From an uncultured Gammaproteobacteria bacterium (GTDB taxonomy: Bacteria > Patescibacteriota > Microgenomatia > UBA12405), in NCBI GenBank assembly GCA_964408995.1, contig CAYPBP010000002.1:32491-96490 (forward strand): a stretch of DNA of 64,000 nt, read 5' to 3'. Under the pieces are notes generated by a model. That model ran no database searches, was not told where the DNA came from, and was given only the letters and a program-made list of their open reading frames with translations. A program made the position numbers and the translations under genes. Shown one piece after another: positions 2,930 through 62,787 of this stretch. How positions within the stretch are numbered: position 1 is the first letter of the stretch; every line of letters begins with the position of its first letter.

Positions 2930-3640
2930 TTTATACCTCAATTACCAACGGTAAAACCATTGGTTGGCGGCCAGTTTAAATTTTTGATATTGCAGATATG
3001 TAATAAAAATTGCAATAATAGTATGTGCTTTATATTCAAAACCCTAAAAATTTTGCAGATAAATTTAAAACAAAATCATCTAGATTGAATAACTGGGATT
3101 ATTCTAAGCCAGGTTTTTATTTCATTACGATAAAAACATTAAACGATAATAATTTTTTTGGAAAAATTATTAATGAAAAAATTGAATTATCGGCTATTGG
3201 TAAAATTGCCAATCAATATTTAATTGATATTTCTAAACATTTTTCAAATGTAATATTGGATGAATATACTATTATGCCAAATCATTTGCATATTCTATTC
3301 CTTGTAGAGACGCCAGATCTGGCGTCTCTACAAAATAATCAAAAAATCACGTTGCTAAATTATAGCCACAATAACCATCCAGATTTTTATAATCGATTGA
3401 ATCAAAAATCAAAACAATTAATTCCAAAAATTATTCAACAATATAAATCATCAGTAAAACGAATTTGTAATCAGAACAATTTATTTTTTGGTTGGCAAAA
3501 TCGTTACTATGATCAGATTATTAAATCTAAACTAGAATTAAATAATATACGTCAATATATTAAAAATAATCCTGTTAATTGGAAAAAATAATTTATACCT
3601 CAATTACCAACGGTAAAACCATTGGTTGACGGCCGGTTTT
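2928..3640 (+). mobile_element. IS200/IS605-like (RAYT-type) Y1-transposase element bracketed by a 50-bp direct duplication
   Basis: Direct repeats at 2928-2977 and 3590-3640 (taatttatacctcaattaccaacggtaaaaccattggttgRcggccRgttt, 2 mismatches). Each contains the imperfect palindrome ccaacggt/accattgg and flanks a HUH-Y transposase gene. Confidence 0.65.
3025..3591 (+). CDS. IS200-like / REP-associated tyrosine transposase (COG1943-type Y1 HUH transposase)
   Basis: GTG start. N-terminal W-x6-G-YF-T-T box (NNWDYSKPGFYFITIKT), HUH motif IMPNHLHILFLV, and C-terminal catalytic-Tyr box WQNRYYDQIIKSK...YIKNNPVNW matching the RAYT/TnpA_REP signature. Confidence 0.8.
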   Translation: MLYIQNPKNFADKFKTKSSRLNNWDYSKPGFYFITIKTLNDNNFFGKIINEKIELSAIGKIANQYLIDISKHFSNVILDEYTIMPNHLHILFLVETPDLASLQNNQKITLLNYSHNNHPDFYNRLNQKSKQLIPKIIQQYKSSVKRICNQNNLFFGWQNRYYDQIIKSKLELNNIRQYIKNNPVNWKK

Positions 3641-5992: not shown

Positions 5993-6032
5993 TATTTAAA
6001 TTTCTGAGATATACGTTTTATTTATTTATTTT

Positions 6033-6065
6033 GTATATACGCCCCGTACCACGGGGCGTATATAC
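6033..6065 (-). terminator. Intrinsic terminator downstream of the Lon-like gene (repeat family E)
   Basis: 13-bp stem tatatacgcccc(g) / (c)ggggcgtatata with loop taccac, followed on the minus strand by A/T-rich sequence. A near-identical stem recurs at 52424-52455. Confidence 0.6.
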
Positions 6066-12500: not shown

Positions 12501-13934
12501 CTACTTCGTGTTATAGGCTATTATAACATCATTTATCTTAAAATCAATATAGGGCTTGAAAGTCATGCCACATTCAGTTCCAGACTTGATTTTTTCGATA
12601 ATATTTTTAGCTTGGTGGATACCTTCAACCTTGGTATCTTTGATGATTTTGTCATCACGTTTTAAGTGAATTAAATCCCCTTTACAGATTTCTCCTTTAG
12701 TACATTGAACGCCAGAAATACGAACTTTATCGATTTTGAATTCAGCTTTAATCAAACCTTCTCCAAGAACAGTTTCGTCAATGGTAGGTTCTAAAAGATG
12801 TAAAACTTGGTTTTGAATATCTTCAATAATTTCATAAATAATTCTGGATTCAAAAATTCTGACCTTAGTATTCTCGGCTATTTGAGCAATGTGCTTTGGG
12901 GTAGAAACATTGAAGGCAAAAATTTGAGCTTTGGAAGCTTCGGCCAAGAAAACATCATTGTCAGAAACAGCACCAATCCCAGAAGAAATTACAATTACAT
13001 CTTCATTAAAGCTATTTTCTAGAGCTTCTAAAGTACCCCTAACATCGGCTTTTAAGATTACTTTTAACTTAGGATTTTCTTCGGTAGATTCGAGTAAAAC
13101 TCGTTGTTCTTTACTTGGTTGTAAACATTCAGATTTAGTAGAAATAACGAGGCTGCTAACTGGTGGAACTTTTTCAAAGCCTAAAACTTCAACTGGAGTG
13201 CTAGGACCAGCTTCTTTTAGAGAAACACCATTACAATCTATCATGGCTTTAACTTTACAAAGAATGTCTTCACAGTAAACAATGTCACCAACACGGAGAG
13301 TACCGTTGTTGACGATTAAGGAAGCCACTGGACCTCTAGCTTTATCGAGACGAGATTCGATAATAACAGCTTCAAAACAACCAGCTGGATCAGCTTGTAA
13401 CTCAAGAATTTCAGCATTTAATAAAATCATTTCTAAAAGATCTTCAATACCTTGACCAGTTTTGGCAGAAACTGGAAGAACAGCTAATTGACCACCATAT
13501 TCTTCGGGAGTATAGCCTAATTCAACTAATTGACCTTTAACTTTATCAGGAGAAGCATTTTCTAAATCAATTTTGTTCATGGCCACAATGAAAGGAATAT
13601 CGGTTTTTTTGATATGTTCGATACATTCTTTGGTTTGAGGCATGATGCCTTCGACAGCAGAAACAACTAAAATTATCATGTCGGTGGCTTTGGCACCACA
13701 AGCACGCATGTTTATAAAAGCAGCATGGCCGGGAGTATCGATAAAAGTGATTAGTTTAGCTTCGCCGTTTTTTTCAGTAACTTTAGCTTGATAAGCACCA
13801 ATGTGTTGAGTAATACCACCGGCTTCTTTTTTCCAGACATTAGTAGAACGAATCTTGTCTAAAAGAGAGGTTTTACCATGATCAATATGACCCATGACGG
13901 CAACGATCGGTGGACGAGTTAATTTATTAGTCAT
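12501..13934 (-). CDS. infB: Translation initiation factor IF-2 (short form: G domain plus C-terminal domains)
   Basis: [17 protein letters not shown] and NKID G-motifs. I place the start at the ATG (complement of 13932-13934), preceded by GGGGAG 9 nt upstream. The track's longer version begins with GTG inside a hairpin. Confidence 0.88.
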
Positions 13935-13939
13935 ATTTT

Positions 13940-13972
13940 CAATCTCCCCTAGCCCCTCTTTCACAAGAGGGG
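13940..13972. repeat. Family A GC-rich palindromic element, copy A1, in the nusA-infB intercistronic region
   Basis: caatctcccctagcccctctttcacaagagggg. The same ~35-nt motif occurs at 49741, 57555 and 61263. Confidence 0.7.
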
Positions 13973-26256: not shown

Positions 26257-26877
26257 ATGAATAAAAAAATTATCTTATTTGATATTGATGAAACTTTAAT
26301 GGGACTAGATAAGATGGCAGTAATGTTTTATGAAAAGTTGGCAAAGCAACTTGAAGTAACAACCGAGGAAATTATTGAATTGAAAGAACAATACAAATTA
26401 ACACTAAATAAATCTGGTGATTATTTACATAGTAATTTAATATTATTTCTTAAAGAGATAACAGGTAAAAAGGAAAAAGAAATAGAAGATCCATTTGAAG
26501 ATAAAGAAAATTATAAAAAATCGTTACACCCTGAGGTAAAAGAAAATATAGAAAAAATAAGTAAAGATTTTAGAATAGGAGTCTACTCTGAGGGATTTTA
26601 TGAATACCAAAAAAAGAAAGTTTTTTGGTCTGGAATTGGAGATTTTTTTGATGAAGAACTTATTTTTATAACTCAAAATAAATCTGACCCTGAGTTTCTT
26701 AAAACATTACCAGAGGGAGCAATCATTATTGATGATAAAAAAGAAAAAATTCAAAAGTTAAAAGAAGCTGGAAGATTTAATTTTGTTTGGATTAATAGAA
26801 AAAATGATGAAGTTATGGATGATGTTAAAACAGTTAAAAACTTAAATGAATTTGCTGACTTACTTGGACAGCTCTAA
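26257..26877 (+). CDS. HAD-superfamily hydrolase (paralog 1)
   Basis: Motif I FDIDETL, motif II Ser (GVYSEG), motif III Lys, motif IV IIDDKKE. Confidence 0.65.
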   Translation: MNKKIILFDIDETLMGLDKMAVMFYEKLAKQLEVTTEEIIELKEQYKLTLNKSGDYLHSNLILFLKEITGKKEKEIEDPFEDKENYKKSLHPEVKENIEKISKDFRIGVYSEGFYEYQKKKVFWSGIGDFFDEELIFITQNKSDPEFLKTLPEGAIIIDDKKEKIQKLKEAGRFNFVWINRKNDEVMDDVKTVKNLNEFADLLGQL

Positions 26878-26894: not shown

Positions 26895-27521
26895 ATGGAA
26901 AAACAAATTATTTTATTCGACTTAGATGATACTTTATTTAGTAAAACGGAATATCTTAAAAGATTGAATGATAATTTGGCCAGGGAATGTAATACTTCAA
27001 GTGAACAAATTGCTGATTTTGGAAATAAATATTTTGAAAGTTTAGGAAACTCTAACGATTTTCATATAAAGAAATATTTGGAATATTTAGATCAAAATTT
27101 TAATAAAGAAATTGATTTGGAAAATTTTACTACTGATAAGTTGAAAATTTATTCTGGATCTTTGTTTTCAGACACTATTCCTGTTTTAGAAAAATTGAAA
27201 GATAATTTTAGATTGGGTATTTATTCTCAAGGATTTGATGATTGTCAAAGAATTAAAATTAATGAATCTGGAATTGGAAATTATTTTGATGAAGAACTTA
27301 TTTTTATTGCTAGAAATAAATCAGATCCTAAGTTTATTGAAAGATTACCAGATGGATCAACAATAGTTGATGATAAAAAAGAAAAGTTTGAAGCATTAAA
27401 AGAAACTGAAAGATTTAATCTTGTTTGGATTAACAGAAAAGACGATGAGGTAATGGATGGAATAGAAACAATTAGAAACTTAGAAAAATTAGTTGATTTG
27501 GTTAAAGTGAGAGCGGTTTAG
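26895..27521 (+). CDS. HAD-superfamily hydrolase (paralog 2; tandem duplicate of 26257-26877)
   Basis: FDLDDTL ... IVDDKKEKFEALKETERFNLVWINRKDDEVMD, collinear with paralog 1 (shared GIG-YFDEELIFI and FVWINRK blocks). Confidence 0.65.
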   Translation: MEKQIILFDLDDTLFSKTEYLKRLNDNLARECNTSSEQIADFGNKYFESLGNSNDFHIKKYLEYLDQNFNKEIDLENFTTDKLKIYSGSLFSDTIPVLEKLKDNFRLGIYSQGFDDCQRIKINESGIGNYFDEELIFIARNKSDPKFIERLPDGSTIVDDKKEKFEALKETERFNLVWINRKDDEVMDGIETIRNLEKLVDLVKVRAV

Positions 27522-52371: not shown

Positions 52372-52423
52372 AATTTAGTTTATCAAGTTTTAAAGTTATA
52401 AAGTTTTTAAAGTTAATTAATTA

Positions 52424-52455
52424 TTTATTTAATTATATACGCCCCTCGGTGCGGG
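52424..52455 (-). terminator. Intrinsic terminator downstream of map (repeat family E, copy 2)
   Basis: tatatacgcccctcggtgcggggcgtatata, the same 12-bp stem as at 6033-6065. Confidence 0.6.
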
Positions 52456-52467
52456 GCGTATATATGT

Positions 52468-55699: not shown

Positions 55700-57426
55700 A
55701 GTGTTAAACCCTCTGCCCTTCGGGCATCTCCCTTAACAGGGCGACTTTTTAATAATTTAATAATTTCTTCTGGAAAGAATGGACGACCATTGTTTTTGTT
55801 AATAATTTTGCTTGGACTAAATTCAAATTGAGACTTTAAAAGAGTGACTAATTGATTAGTTTCATTATTTTCGATGACAATAATTTTTTCAAAAGCATCA
55901 ATTATTTTTTTAATATCTGGATTGATTGGCCAAAGAGTTTTTATTTGTAAGAAAGCGAAGTCTTCTTTATTTTTTATTAATTTCAAAGCTTCTAAAATGG
56001 CACCTTTTGGAGAACCCCAACTAATAATTAATTTAGTGGCTTTTGAAGATCCAAATAAATTTGGCTTTGGACAAATTTTTAAAGCAGTTTTTAATTTTAA
56101 TAATCTTTTTTGAGACATTTTTTCGGAAAGAGAGGCATCTTCCGTTGAAAAACCAACTTCATCATGTTCGTAACTATTGGCTAAAAATTCACCATTTGGA
56201 GTACCTGGAAGAGTAAGAGGAGAAATACCGTCTTTGGTAAAGGCATATCGTTTGAAACTGTTTTCTTCAACTTCATTTAAGATTTTACCTTTGTCTATTT
56301 TTACTTCCATACTTGGAAAATATTTGGTACTAGCACTTGATTCGGCAACTAGTTTGTCACTTAAAACAATGACTGGTGTTTGAAGAATAGCCGCTAAATC
56401 TAAAGATTTGTGACCTAATTCAAAAGATTCATTAATATCACCTGGGGCGACAACAACTTTTGGGAATTCACCATGACCAGAATAAATGGCATGAAATAAA
56501 TCTCCTTGACTAGTCCAAGTGGGTAAGCCAGTGGCTGGACCTGGACGAGATACTAAATAATAGACCATACCGATTTCAGAAATGCCACAAAAACTAACAG
56601 CTTCGTTCATAAGGGCAAATCCACCACCTGAAGTGCCCGTAGCAGCTCTAGCACCAGCAAAAGCGGCACCAGCAGCCATGTTGGCAGAAGCAATCTCGTC
56701 TTCTGGATGATTTACGTTTAATTTAAATTCTGTTTGTTTACTAGCTAGGAAATGAAGAGCACCAGTGGCTGGAGTCATAGGATAGGCTGAATAAAAATTG
56801 CCACCACCTTTGATAAATCCCCAACCATAAGCTTCGTTACCATCATAAAAACCTTTTTTGGTTTTTTTAGTTGGTTTTTTTATTTTGATTTGATATTTAG
56901 AAAAATTTTCTTTGGCATAATTATAAGCAAGAGTAAAAGCAGCTAAATTTACATCAGCATGTTTTCCATAAGATTGAGAGATGTGATTTTTAGCTAAATC
57001 AATATCTAAATCATAAAGATAAGCAGCAACACCTAGACAAAGAGTATTCATAACCAAGGGATTGCCGGCTTGAGTAGCCATATCTTTTAGAGGTAGATTT
57101 AAGAAATTAGCTTTGCTTTTAACTTCGGTAAAGTCTTCATCAGAAAAAACTAAAGTCTTTTTAGTAAATTCGTCTTGATGTTGTTGCCAATGGTTTGGAT
57201 AAACTGAAAAGAATAAATCAACATTAAAGTGAGTTGAAAAAACTTCTTGATCAGAGAAAGTAATTTGATAGGTATTATGACCACCTCTAACCAAAGATGG
57301 ATATTCACTGTAATCAGATAGATGGAAACCATGATCAATTAAGAGTTTTGAAAAAATTTGACCAGCAGACTTGATTCCGGAACCAGCCGGACCAGAGATT
57401 TTGATGGTGGAAAAATTTAAGCTCAT
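55696..57426 (-). CDS. 2-oxoacid:ferredoxin oxidoreductase, fused gamma-alpha subunit
   Basis: N-terminal gamma-domain (GPAGSGIKSAGQIF) followed by the alpha-subunit core (YPMTPATG). A 4-bp overlap with the beta gene. Confidence 0.85.
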   Translation of the reverse strand: MSLNFSTIKISGPAGSGIKSAGQIFSKLLIDHGFHLSDYSEYPSLVRGGHNTYQITFSDQEVFSTHFNVDLFFSVYPNHWQQHQDEFTKKTLVFSDEDFTEVKSKANFLNLPLKDMATQAGNPLVMNTLCLGVAAYLYDLDIDLAKNHISQSYGKHADVNLAAFTLAYNYAKENFSKYQIKIKKPTKKTKKGFYDGNEAYGWGFIKGGGNFYSAYPMTPATGALHFLASKQTEFKLNVNHPEDEIASANMAAGAAFAGARAATGTSGGGFALMNEAVSFCGISEIGMVYYLVSRPGPATGLPTWTSQGDLFHAIYSGHGEFPKVVVAPGDINESFELGHKSLDLAAILQTPVIVLSDKLVAESSASTKYFPSMEVKIDKGKILNEVEENSFKRYAFTKDGISPLTLPGTPNGEFLANSYEHDEVGFSTEDASLSEKMSQKRLLKLKTALKICPKPNLFGSSKATKLIISWGSPKGAILEALKLIKNKEDFAFLQIKTLWPINPDIKKIIDAFEKIIVIENNETNQLVTLLKSQFEFSPSKIINKNNGRPFFPEEIIKLLKSRPVKGDARRAEGLTL

Positions 57427-57499
57427 CTGACTATTTTACTACATATTTGTTGAATTTTATAAAAAATGATTAAAACTCCCTTTGCCCTTAATAAAAACC

Positions 57500-57548
57500 C
57501 ACCTTCCCTGAAGGGCCCCTTCCTCCCTTGAAAAGGGAGGTCTATAAA
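57500..57548. repeat. Family D multi-hairpin element (copy 2) in the korA / DEAD-helicase divergent intergenic region
   Basis: aaaacccaccttccctgaagggccccttcctcccttgaaaagggagg, similar to 11300-11346. Confidence 0.5.
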
Positions 57549-57554
57549 GTTTTT

Positions 57555-57589
57555 CAATCTCCCCCTGCCCCCTCTTTCACAAGAGGGGG
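57555..57589. repeat. Family A element, copy A2 (intergenic, directly after the family D copy)
   Basis: caatctccccctgccccctctttcacaagaggggg. Confidence 0.7.
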
Positions 57590-60599: not shown

Positions 60600-61802
60600 T
60601 CATTTTTTCTTCTCTTTTAAATATTTTTTATCTTTTAGTTTTTCAGGCAAAAGGCTTTCTTTTGTGTACATTTCATAGTCTTTGCCATAATCTAATTCTT
60701 TCATTAACTTAGTTTCGGCGTTGCGGAGATTAAGCGGTATTGGTAGATTACCAAACTGCTGAACATCGGCAAGAGCGGCTAAATAAGCATCATAAGCAGA
60801 ACGATCTTTAGGACTTTTGGCTAGATAAACAACTCCATGAGCTAGGTTTTCTCGACACTCTGGATAGCCAATTGTTTCAACAGCTCTGAAAACTTCATTG
60901 GCCATCATTAAAGCTGAAGAATTGGCAATACCAATATCTTCACTGGCAAAAATAACCATACGACGGGCAATAAATTTTGGGTCTTCGCCAGCATCAATCA
61001 TTCTGGCTAAATAATAAAGAGCAGCATCTGGATTACTGGCTCGCATAGATTTTATAAAAGCAGAAATGGTATTGAAGTGATCCTCCCCTTTTTTATCGAA
61101 ACGTAAAAAACTATTTTGAAGAGTTGATTTTAAGTTTTCTTTAGAAAGATCGTTATATAAAGTGAAAGCATTATCAATCATGGTTAGAGCCTGACGAGCA
61201 TCACCATTGGCCATTTGAATTAGCCATTCTTTGGCATCTTTTTTGATAGTTAATTTTTTATTCAATCTCCCTAAATCCCTCTTTGACAAGAGGGACTTAT
61301 TAATGACATCAATTGCTCTAGTGATTATTTTGTCAATATCTTCATCTGACAATTCTTTGAGGGTGAAAACTCGACAACGAGATAAGAGTGGAGAAATAAC
61401 TTCAAAACTGGGATTTTCGGTGGTGGCACCGATTAAAGTTAGAAGACCGGATTCTACATAGGGTAGCAAAAAATCTTGTTGAGCTTTATTAAAACGATGA
61501 ATTTCGTCTAAAAAAAGAATTACTCTTTGAATAGGTCTGGCTTGAGCAATAATTTTTTTAATATCGTCTTTGCTAGCAGAAACAGCTGATAATTCAAAAA
61601 TCTGGGCATCTGTTTCTTTGGCAATAATTTTGGCTAAAGTGGTTTTACCAACCCCTGGAGGACCCCAAAAAATCATAGAAAAGAATTGTTTGGATTCGAT
61701 TAATTTCCTTAAAGGTTTTCCCTCCCCAACTAAATGAGATTGACCAATAAATTCATCAAGGTTTTTAGGACGTAGAAGAGAGGCTAGCGGTTGAGTAAGC
61801 AT
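60600..61802 (-). CDS. rarA: Replication-associated recombination protein A (MgsA/RarA AAA+ ATPase)
   Basis: LRPKNLDEFIGQ, Walker A GPPGVGKTT, and the MgsA C-terminal helical domain. I place the start at MLTQPL. Contains the in-frame family A element. Confidence 0.9.
   Translation of the reverse strand: MLTQPLASLLRPKNLDEFIGQSHLVGEGKPLRKLIESKQFFSMIFWGPPGVGKTTLAKIIAKETDAQIFELSAVSASKDDIKKIIAQARPIQRVILFLDEIHRFNKAQQDFLLPYVESGLLTLIGATTENPSFEVISPLLSRCRVFTLKELSDEDIDKIITRAIDVINKSLLSKRDLGRLNKKLTIKKDAKEWLIQMANGDARQALTMIDNAFTLYNDLSKENLKSTLQNSFLRFDKKGEDHFNTISAFIKSMRASNPDAALYYLARMIDAGEDPKFIARRMVIFASEDIGIANSSALMMANEVFRAVETIGYPECRENLAHGVVYLAKSPKDRSAYDAYLAALADVQQFGNLPIPLNLRNAETKLMKELDYGKDYEMYTKESLLPEKLKDKKYLKEKKK
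61263..61295. repeat. Family A element, copy A3, in-frame in rarA
   Basis: caatctccctaaatccctctttgacaagaggga, which encodes (reverse strand) ...KSLLSKRDLGRL... in the linker between the AAA+ and C-terminal domains. Confidence 0.65.
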
Positions 61803-61866
61803 GTTTTGGGTTTTATTTGGGTAATAACCCATTTTAACATACTAAAAATAATTTTTAGTTATTATC

Positions 61867-62787
61867 TTAATTACTAGTAAGTTTATTTTGTTTTATTCTT
61901 CTGATATATAAGATAACTAAAATTATTGGGATTATTATTGGTATATACACAACCGCCCAAATAATTAGAGAAGCAATTCCCCTAAACATTCCAACCAGAG
62001 ATCTAACTGCTTCTTTGAAAACTACTGTTGGTCGCCATTCATTGGTTGGAGCATAAGGAAGAGATAACTCATCGGTTGATAAATAAATTGTAATTTTGCT
62101 TAACTTAGCTGATTGTTCATAATATTTTTGTTGACCTTTTAAATTGTCAATTTGTGATTGTAAATTTATCAACTCTTGTTGAACATTCATCAGATCATTT
62201 ACTTTTTCTGCTTTTTGGAGAATATCTTCATATTTTGTTTTTGTTTTATTTAAAACCTCGATACGAGCATCTATATCCATATATTGATCAGTAACATCAT
62301 TACCACTAACTGATTCAGAAACAACTTTTACAGCCATATTTTTAAAAGCATTCATGGCTTCTTTTCTTTTATCTTCTGGTATACGAACTGAAATACTACC
62401 ATTAGCAGCACCCTCAGGTTTTGTTAAATTTAAATTTATTAAAAAACCTCCAAAACTTTTGGTTGTTTCTTCTATCTCATTTATTGTTTTACTAACATCT
62501 TTTACTTGAAGTGATAGACCTGTATCCTGGATAACTAATCTATCTGTACTTTCTGATGGAGCAATATTATTTCTTAAAGAACTAAGGCCTGATTTAGCGG
62601 AACCAAAACTGACTGTATTAGCTGTAGGTGCATAAGCCATATCAGTCATTACAGAACTATTTTTGGTGTTATTTATTGATAGATTCTTTGCAAAGAAAGT
62701 ATTTTTTAGCCAAAGAGTAACTATAACTAATAGAATAATTACAGCCCAATTTTTTTTAAGAAAGTTAATCATAAAATAGTCTAACAT
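61867..62787 (-). CDS. DUF4349-like membrane-anchored protein
   Basis: N- and C-terminal TM helices, a central coiled coil, and the pattern ...ISVRIPEDK...DVTDQYMDIDARI. Confidence 0.45.
   Translation of the reverse strand: MLDYFMINFLKKNWAVIILLVIVTLWLKNTFFAKNLSINNTKNSSVMTDMAYAPTANTVSFGSAKSGLSSLRNNIAPSESTDRLVIQDTGLSLQVKDVSKTINEIEETTKSFGGFLINLNLTKPEGAANGSISVRIPEDKRKEAMNAFKNMAVKVVSESVSGNDVTDQYMDIDARIEVLNKTKTKYEDILQKAEKVNDLMNVQQELINLQSQIDNLKGQQKYYEQSAKLSKITIYLSTDELSLPYAPTNEWRPTVVFKEAVRSLVGMFRGIASLIIWAVVYIPIIIPIILVILYIRRIKQNKLTSN

Follow-up and report, generated by a model that had tools for sequence, protein, structure and literature searches.

Introduction

Repeats predicted to fold into intrastrand triplexes (BoxC, PIT, TMECO) were first recognized decades ago, yet they still lack an assigned function, and there is no evidence of their folding in vivo. 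In Escherichia coli, BoxC sequences are the same as the PIT elements (Hoyne and Maher 2000/2002, cited in PMC4666352) and as TMECO (Holder et al. 2015, NAR, PMC4666352). As isolated single-stranded DNA, TMECO forms a very stable triplex; it showed neither promoter nor terminator activity, and is associated with local genomic instability but not with mobile elements (PMC4666352). In E. coli it is "always intergenic", with no reported strand-orientation bias (PMC4666352). Here, we describe a repeat copy that lies in frame in the rarA/mgsA gene of a 64,000-nucleotide (nt) stretch of DNA from an uncultured bacterium (contig CAYPBP010000002.1, assembly GCA_964408995.1, positions 32,491 to 96,490; hereafter the window), together with the dispersed family to which this copy belongs.

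Two other groups of short repeats bear on this locus. Rickettsia palindromic elements (RPEs) are reportedly selfish-looking sequences that occur in frame in conserved genes, at surface-exposed permissive regions, as well as between genes. They are ~100-150 bp long, carry no triplex-type third tract and are not known from outside Rickettsia. The REP sequences of the REP/RAYT system, which involves IS200/IS605-like Y1 transposases, are short hairpin repeats with conserved single-stranded flanking bases and replication-coupled single-strand transposition. REPs lie outside genes, frequently in pairs (BIMEs), and their head is of the GTAG type.

Results

A repeat copy in the lid loop of RarA

Read from its sequence, the segment in rarA is probably (at about 0.72) a copy of a dispersed, ~38-nt, triplex-type repeat of Candidatus Shapirobacteria (Patescibacteria) that inserted in the gene and is carried there as a tolerated passenger, with maintenance at the DNA level. 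DNA-level maintenance is inferred from the covariation of three tracts, the identity of orthologous copies, the occurrence of both orientations in genes, and a polarity that follows strand composition.

The host gene is a bona fide RarA/MgsA. Its 410-residue open reading frame (ORF) carries the Pfam domains AAA, AAA_assoc_2 and MgsA_C, such that the AAA+ core, the lid (AAA_assoc_2) and MgsA_C are all present, and it matches the E. coli RarA/MgsA structure 3PVS with E=1.2e-95. On the minus strand, positions 61295..61263 read TCC CTC TTG TCA AAG AGG GAT TTA GGG AGA TTG and encode SLLSKRDLGRL. With AAG in front, positions 61298..61263 encode KSLLSKRDLGRL; the lysine codon, AAG at 61298-61296, lies just outside the segment as delimited in the preliminary description of this DNA. 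The segment is the core of a 45-bp insertion (Table 1), across which the protein reads ...INKSLLSKRDLGRLNKKLTIK....

The preliminary description had reported, in the reverse-strand frame of RarA, a repeat copy whose length is divisible by three and which causes no disruption. These points are confirmed: the ORF, its domains and the 3PVS match identify the gene, a repeat finder places the copy in its family D5 (13927-13971, 57543-57587 and 61250-61294), and RarA is otherwise intact. The copy had also been placed between the AAA+ lid and the C-terminal region, which needs correction. In an AlphaFold2 model of the window RarA (mean pLDDT, the predicted local distance difference test, of 70, dipping locally to ~62 at the insert), residues 178-192 fall between helices 163-179 and 198-208. 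The model and the 3PVS alignment thus put the insert within the AAA+ lid subdomain, upstream of the sensor-2 GDAR motif. The insert aligns with a variable loop of 3PVS, where the loop of E. coli RarA is short and unrelated. The repeat landed in the variable loop joining the first two helices of the lid subdomain, where it is presumably translated as a 15-residue loop extension.

Filled and empty alleles

We compared the best 120 RarA homologs, nearly all of them named as or placed with Candidatus Shapirobacteria; the loop could be parsed in 117. The closest ortholog (P0002, 97% identical in the protein alignment) lacks exactly the 15 residues SLLSKRDLGRLNKKL. At the nucleotide level, the gene of this closest ortholog (L001) is 90.2% identical to the window rarA, and the sole indel is a 45-nt gap at window positions 61251-61295. 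A minimal, insert-free spacer of 37 residues from RCRVF to NGDAR is found in 73/117 homologs, and inserts of 6-22 residues, with many different sequences, occur at the same loop point in 44/117. The ortholog comparison suggested in the preliminary description therefore shows a segment that is absent from the nearest ortholog and from most homologs rather than conserved among them. The repeat is a copy of a dispersed DNA family and not a feature of RarA.

In a neighbour-joining tree of the masked proteins, calculated with no support values, sequences with and without inserts are intermingled: the window protein is joined to the insert-free P0002, and P0004, which carries the identical peptide SLLSKRDLGRL, is placed elsewhere. 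Peptides at the loop vary by lineage and include SLLSKRDLGRL, SPLSKGDLEGL, SPLHQGEIPRKGRGV and SPDEALAKAGHKK. Empty sites read ...AAA ACT-AAA ATT..., and filled sites read ...AAA AAG-(33 nt)-AAA ATT.... The filled allele of the window carries an extra AATAAAAAATTA; its additional AAT AAA AAA TTA (NKKL) is absent from the other filled alleles, L002, L003 and L088. Beyond the A-rich flanks, no clear target-site duplication was found in the filled/empty comparison. The copy also differs from a miniature inverted-repeat transposable element: no such duplication is evident, and its ends, AAG and TTGAA, are not inverted repeats. A metagenome scan for filled and empty alleles in the same species, using a 26-mer of the rarA flank common to the window and L001, returned 0 matches.

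Another rarA gene (L106, that of P0094) contains a nested triplex-type element in the lid loop and, at gene positions ~1080-1200, two in-frame copies of the perfect 20-nt palindrome CCTGCCTGCCGGCAGGCAGG, which read as LPAGRQV and CLPAGRC.

Three tracts that covary

The rarA copy comprises a pyrimidine (Y) arm, a 4-nt loop, a purine (R) arm, a TTT linker and a third, purine tract. As single-stranded DNA, its hairpin has a predicted energy of -8.4 kcal/mol (z=-3.5). Holder et al. 2015 (PMC4666352) assign the order Y-R-third strand to "class II", and the ITxF definition in that paper sets stems of 6-15 nt, with at most 1 mismatch if longer than 7, and loops of 1-6 nt. Accordingly organized, TCCCTCTT-GTCA-AAGAGGGA forms 8 bp around a 4-nt loop 1 and, after TTT, the tract AGGGAGA mirrors AGAGGGA at 7/7 positions, compared to 5/7 for a direct copy.

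This relationship holds throughout the family. Segments 1 and 2 are reverse complements, and segment 3 mirrors segment 2 without being its direct copy, in types I-V (Table 1), in nested variants and where the third tract contains T. The T variants, which lie outside the scan pattern described below, obey the same rule: in AAGGAGGGG/GGGGTGGA and AAAGAGGGG/GGGGTGA, the T of segment 3 stands opposite A. Likewise outside the scan pattern, L105 and L106 carry at the same rarA site a nested-linker variant, TCTCCCCTT-CATC-AAGGGGAGA-TA[CCCC GAAA GGGG]-AGAGGGG.

Because the purine arm of this family is asymmetric, mirror and direct copies can be distinguished. In 0.81 Mb of loci, a third tract was sought up to 45 nt downstream of each asymmetric Y/R hairpin. 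A perfect 7/7 mirror-coded tract was found for 108 of 226 hairpins and a direct-coded tract for 16, compared to 1.6% of random windows; the perfect variants included 61 distinct ones. Over 38 distinct pairs of segments 2 and 3, the base code was G>G 163, A>A 57, A>T 31 and other 15 (94% compliant), with T in the third tract only opposite A. The reverse-Hoogsteen purine-motif code consists of G.G-C triads together with A.A-T or T.A-T, its third strand running antiparallel to the purine strand. The T variants would place A in the complementary pyrimidine third strand; thus, the Y-R-R strand alone fits the triplex code. The layout is that of a class II purine-motif intrastrand triplex motif, a predicted fold.

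At orthologous sites, the 35-nt core is identical, compared to 67-86% identity over 250-300 nt of flank. Specifically, the window and L088, both in rarA, share 35/35 positions of the core with flanks at 76%; L002 and L069 share 35/35 with flanks at 72%; and the cores of L041, L051 and L091 are identical with flanks at 80-85%. Types I, II and III each occupy the rarA site, and type I is exchanged for type II within the pairs L007/L016 and L022/L027. Orthologous copies that differ do so by whole type, in all three tracts at once. Conserved cores combined with type switches are consistent with the fold being selected, or with a constrained master copy from which copies are repeatedly replaced or gene-converted. 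The conservation of the core does not fit selection on the RarA peptide.

Several other readings of the element were considered and rejected. A pseudoknot between loop 1 and the tail was discarded because copies with a GTGA loop retain the same TTGAA tail, with no covariation. Pairing between elements, suggested by the complementarity of the type I segment 3 to the type II segment 1, is not general, as the partner types occur mostly in different genomes. For a promoter on the opposite strand (TTGACA in loop 1), only 10 nt of the element follow the hexamer, and no -10 sequence was found at 17 nt in the inspected flanks. The ATTGAA tail recalls CRISPR repeats, and copies are solitary, with no arrays.

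A dispersed family in Shapirobacteria

A pattern built from five copies, TTCAATCYCN{6,14}CYYTTTSACAARRG, which fixes loop 1 and the tail, was run on the contigs of species-representative genomes. It returned 101 loci, of which ~85 are true copies, almost all in Shapirobacteria-like metagenome-assembled genomes (MAGs): either Ca. Shapirobacteria MAGs or low-GC MAGs labelled "uncultured Gammaproteobacteria". Identical 35-38-mers recur in dozens of independent assemblies, and 10 strict copies lie on one 949-kb scaffold, JBAYUY010000001.1. In most cases, the copies of a genome are mainly type I or mainly type II.

MAGs titled "uncultured Gammaproteobacteria bacterium" have 29-41% GC and supplied many of the loci (L012, L013, L016, L018, L020, L022-L024, L027-L029, L039, L045, L048, L051, L058, L062, L068, L075, L102 and L103). 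In several of them, the orthologous flanks are 77-86% identical in nucleotides to those of Ca. Shapirobacteria MAGs. Based on this identity, the labels are probably wrong, and we rejected Gammaproteobacteria as hosts.

Beyond Shapirobacteria, full-architecture copies are few: UBP14, Chromatiales, Desulfacinum infernum DSM 9756 and Desulfuromonadales. Five loci in high-GC, non-CPR genomes (CPR, candidate phyla radiation) have the GTCA loop and ATTGAA tail: L014, from the isolate D. infernum DSM 9756, and L083, L053, L057 and L061, the last with a tandemly duplicated third tract. An exact type III 38-mer lies within a 58%-GC UBP14 contig. Such copies could reflect horizontal spread, shared constraint or misbinning.

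An Rfam scan of the locus (E up to 10) gave only noise, with nothing near any gathering score. The 35 matches to the pattern in IMG/VR all represent a single conserved phage coding sequence that lacks both hairpin and third tract, and were dismissed as chance. A tblastn search with approximate query sequences for IS200 TnpA and an E. coli RAYT, covering 0.82 Mb of flanking loci, produced no match below E=0.4.

Placement and strand polarity

A tally of coding and intergenic copies, as proposed in the preliminary description, covered ~75 independent sites. Approximately 50 fall between genes, in many cases within very short spacers; ~6 immediately precede start codons, ~4 form C-terminal tails, and ~12 are internal to conserved genes and in frame, ~6 in sense and ~6 in antisense orientation. 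The sense sites are in RarA, ValRS, MiaA, Dus and an O-antigen-ligase-like membrane protein (identified by eye), with the frame KS[LP]LSK... in types I-II; the Dus copy reads SLLSKRGQGEIE. A further internal sense copy, in UvrA, uses the frame VPLVKGGFRGIE. Antisense copies use the frames FNPSKSPFDKGD or SISPSPSLTRGG and occur in TrmD, Sua5-TsaE and a TraG-like ATPase, with further antisense sites in an ADP-forming acetyl-CoA synthetase, TsaD and an amine-oxidase-like protein. Read directly from the sequence, 4/6 frames of the element are open. The equal use of sense and antisense orientations in genes argues against a requirement at the RNA level.

The Y-R-R strand is the locally C-rich strand in 67 of 78 copies (elements masked, Fisher p=1e-10), and in 41 of 50 (p=1e-5) it runs in the direction of most neighbouring genes. 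On the 949-kb scaffold, all 10 copies (456-880 kb) are on one strand, two of them antisense to their host gene; indeed, antisense genic copies in general still follow the skew rule. Other triplex-type variants show the same strand tendency (22/31). Orientation is therefore set at chromosome scale, as expected of replication-linked single-strand processes. That it tracks the strand composition of the chromosome and not the host gene points to DNA-level, probably single-strand or replication-linked, biology.

Across the window and loci L013-L089, base skew is unusual: the sense-strand GC skew is ~+0.23 to +0.32 in genes that have the regionally G-rich strand as sense strand. In the sense-host genes examined, the sense-strand skew was mostly negative, at ~-0.37 to +0.08. 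The minus strand of the window holds 87% of long-ORF bases, and the plus strand is G-rich from ~24 kb onward.

Further copies and repeats in the window

The window holds three close copies and two variants of the repeat family (Table 1). The hairpin pattern CCCTCTTNNNNAAGAGGG has 4 matches in the window versus 0.22 expected, and 0/100 shuffles reach 4. For 4/4 perfect Y/R hairpins, the mirror tract is on the minus strand.

The rarA copy had been called a second independent case of the repeat in a protein. The earlier case, the infB copy, is doubtful. The GGGGAG of the infB copy lies 9 nt ahead of an ATG at 13934, and the program-called infB start, GTG at 13964, falls within the repeat (MKEGLGEIEN...). 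Most likely, the copy sits in the 48-nt nusA-infB spacer and the ATG at 13934 is the true start, in which case its third tract, GGGGAGA, is plausibly the infB Shine-Dalgarno sequence. A better in-frame case is the variant at 55708-55747, which encodes the last 16 residues of POR alpha (SRPVKGDARRAEGLTL), in frame, up to the stop codon. The variant at 57497-57540 lies 12 nt from the copy at 57553-57589, the two forming a tandem pair in one divergent intergenic region.

Table 1. Features of the rarA locus, other family members in the window, and repeat types. Positions are those of the window.
Feature	Position	Strand	Composition or basis
rarA/mgsA gene, host of the insertion	60600..61832	-	ORF, Pfam domains, 3PVS match
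45-bp in-frame insertion, encodes SLLSKRDLGRLNKKL, residues 178-192	61251..61295	-	DNA alignment with L001; protein alignment
AAG head	61296..61298	-	Conserved 5' of nearly all type I-III copies; can pair with TTT linker
Segment 1, pyrimidine arm TCCCTCTT	61288..61295	-	Sequence reading
Loop 1, GTCA	61284..61287	-	Sequence reading
Segment 2, purine arm AAGAGGGA, reverse complement of segment 1	61276..61283	-	Hairpin energy
Linker TTT (loop 2)	61273..61275	-	Sequence reading
Segment 3, AGGGAGA, mirror of segment 2, candidate reverse-Hoogsteen third strand	61266..61272	-	Mirror score
Conserved tail TTGAA	61261..61265	-	Tail demanded by the scan pattern
Extra AAT AAA AAA TTA (NKKL)	61251..61262	-	Filled allele of this genome only
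Family copy, type IV, loop GTGA, nusA-infB spacer	13938..13972	-	Third tract GGGGAGA
Type V family member (GTGA loop) in the intergenic region of POR alpha (-) and DEAD-box helicase (+)	57553..57589	-	Sequence
Variant CCTCCCTT-TTC-AAGGGAGG-[18-nt linker]-GGTGGGT, then TTTT	57497..57540	-	T in third tract opposite A
Degenerate nested variant AAG-TCGCCCT-GTTA-AGGGAGA-[TGCCC GAAG GGCA]-GAGGGT	55708..55747	-	One hairpin mismatch
Type I (rarA copy)			AAG-TCCCTCTT-GTCA-AAGAGGGA-TTT-AGGGAGA-TTGAA
Type II			AAG-TCTCCCTT-GTCA-AAGGGAGA-TTT-AGAGGGA-TTGAA
Type III			...TCCCCCTT...AAGGGGGA-TTT-AGGGGGA...
Type IV			CCCCTCTT...AAGAGGGG-YTA-GGGGAGA
Type V			CCCCCTCTT...AAGAGGGGG-TA-GGGGGAGA

In the window, a 306-residue ORF (61867-62787, minus strand) separates rarA from a short-chain dehydrogenase gene; it may correspond to the DUF4349 membrane protein called beside rarA in L105. 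This ORF is not at that position in L001, L002 and L106, where the gap between rarA and the dehydrogenase gene is 6-33 nt. Thus, the local gene order around rarA varies.

Other repeat families were also found in the window. Family D17 (6017-6064 and 52417-52464) is a GC-rich palindrome with AT-rich flanks, TATATACGCCCC-N4-6-GGGGCGTATATA; it is probably terminator-like and is not of the Y-R-R type. Family D1 (26549-26848 and 27187-27486) is a 300-nt direct repeat with 77% identity, and family D12 (2927-2977 and 3589-3639) a 51-nt repeat with 96% identity. Both are probably paralogous gene segments.

Discussion

A probable tolerated passenger maintained at the DNA level

In the mechanism that we favour, the Y-R-R layout, namely a 5' pyrimidine arm, a 4-nt loop, a purine arm, a linker of 2-4 nt or a nested hairpin, and a third G/A/T tract, would imply triads of G.G-C and A.A-T or T.A-T. 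When single-stranded, the Y-R-R strand would fold into a hairpin or triplex, either at replication or at a single-strand insertion step. The insertions that survive would be only those in spacers or in frame in permissive loops. The rarA copy would then be a tolerated passenger and not a functional module of RarA.

Several considerations weigh against this account. The stems of this family are shorter and more A-rich than those of the triplex repeats already described, and its triplex is a candidate fold. Even for TMECO, the triplex was seen on isolated single strands and not by in vivo dimethyl sulfate footprinting (PMC4666352). In types I-III, the AAG head and TTT linker can pair, and the minimum free energy fold is a 12-bp hairpin that would compete with the triplex. 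The copies share a common descent, and loop 1 and the tail were set by the scan pattern; thus, the counts are not independent. No transposase, target-site duplication or defined ends were found at the copies, such that "insertion" rests solely on the comparison of filled and empty alleles. The sense strands of most genes are unusually C-rich, such that the usual skew rule for leading and lagging strands may not apply. Finally, the third tract resembles a Shine-Dalgarno sequence, and several copies are followed by a start codon at a distance of 0-22 nt.

This last resemblance underlies an explanation at the RNA level, in which the hairpin and purine tract would act as a translation-initiation cassette, stabilizer, processing site or terminator, and the rarA copy would be accidental. 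Tracts such as GGGAGA, GGGGAGA and GGGGTGA look like Shine-Dalgarno sequences, the infB copy in the window positions one 9 nt ahead of an ATG, about a dozen copies are within 22 nt upstream of co-oriented ORF starts, and many lie 6-21 nt past a co-oriented stop codon. Nevertheless, proximity to gene ends is expected from the very short intergenic spacers of these genomes, and ribosome binding gives no account of why segment 3 mirrors segment 2 type by type. Genic copies are antisense as often as sense, orientation follows regional strand composition even in copies antisense to their host gene, no Rfam family matches, and RNA reportedly does not adopt purine-motif triplexes (PMC4666352). We therefore consider an RNA-level role unlikely. 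Unlikely, too, is a polar chromosomal signal, whether uptake-signal-like, Chi/KOPS-like or a protein-binding site, spread and homogenized by homologous recombination or gene conversion, a process that would account for identical copies and for type switches at orthologous sites. The strong strand polarity, the perfect identity at orthologous sites, the prevalence of one of types I and II in each genome, the failure to find a transposase or target-site duplication, and the raised divergence just upstream of the rarA insert would all suit such a signal. Known uptake and polar signals, however, are 8-12 nt long and arise by substitution and not as structured insertions of 33-45 bp; the covariation of hairpin and mirror tract demands a structural reading; and no candidate recognizing protein was identified.

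The preliminary description had spoken of a repeat "domesticated or tolerated" in a protein. Tolerance is borne out. Domestication as a peptide module, in which the 12-15 residues would have a function in RarA such as a partner-binding loop, is very improbable despite the preserved sequence, the intact frame, the 44/117 homologs with inserts at the same loop, and the identical SLLSKRDLGRL in the distant ortholog P0004. The closest ortholog and 73/117 homologs do without the insert, and the loop peptides differ by lineage. Moreover, it is the nucleotides that are kept, synonymous positions included (35/35 versus 72-76% in the flanks), and the same DNA is intergenic or antisense elsewhere. As for a chance stretch of low-complexity purines and pyrimidines, or an assembly artefact, with no family relationship, the short length of the segment is the one point in its favour. 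The shuffled sequences, the identical 35-38-mers in dozens of independent assemblies and the open rarA ORF make it scarcely credible.

This family can inform on points for which the E. coli repeats are of no help. As the arms are asymmetric, the third tract of natural variants can be seen to obey the reverse-Hoogsteen code and not to be a direct repeat. Tract covariation, type switching and polarity together make selection for a triplex in vivo testable by comparative genomics and biophysics. It is possible, although we hold it more doubtful than probable, that the three-way covariation and polarity represent the first comparative evidence of a selected intrastrand purine-motif DNA triplex in living cells, with replication-coupled single-strand spread even into essential genes of the ultra-small CPR genomes. 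Streamlined CPR genomes tolerate in-frame structured repeats in RarA, ValRS, UvrA, TsaD, TrmD and other proteins. Such copies mark permissive loops in their host proteins, and they bear on how genes are called, orthologs aligned and protein lengths compared statistically in these lineages.

Comparison with known systems

In the literature searched, we found no description of triplex repeats in CPR bacteria or in coding genes. With RPEs, the Shapirobacteria repeat shares the in-frame colonization of permissive protein loops, although size and sequence differ. Like REPs, it is a hairpin repeat with the strand polarity expected of single-strand, replication-coupled processes; its head is AAG and not GTAG. 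As in the homopurine/homopyrimidine mirror repeats that form H-DNA, segments 2 and 3 form a purine mirror repeat around a 2-4-nt centre. Its tracts are much shorter than those of classical H-DNA, and the additional upstream pyrimidine arm would let the whole fold form in one strand.

The closest likeness is to BoxC/PIT/TMECO. Both have the class II order of a Y arm, a loop of 3-6 nt, an R arm, a loop of ~3 nt that is often TTA, and a G-rich third tract with T or A opposite A. Both are ~35-38 nt long, GC-rich and multi-copy, with very high identity among copies, no associated transposase, and presence/absence polymorphism between relatives. Nevertheless, on inspection, the Shapirobacteria family does not match the TMECO pattern CCCTCNCCC-N3-6-GGGNGAGGG-N3-GGGNGAGGG (PMC4666352, Table 1). 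In the window copies, the 7-9-nt stems end in CTT/AAG and the third tract is (G)GGGAGA; more generally, the stems are A/T-rich at the loop-proximal end, and the AAG head, GTCA loop and TTGAA tail are conserved. The host is a CPR lineage of 30-40% GC. Unlike TMECO, the family is strand-polar and occurs in frame in housekeeping genes, at ~12 independent genic sites. It is this presence in CPR housekeeping genes, together with natural three-way covariation and strand polarity, that sets the family apart.

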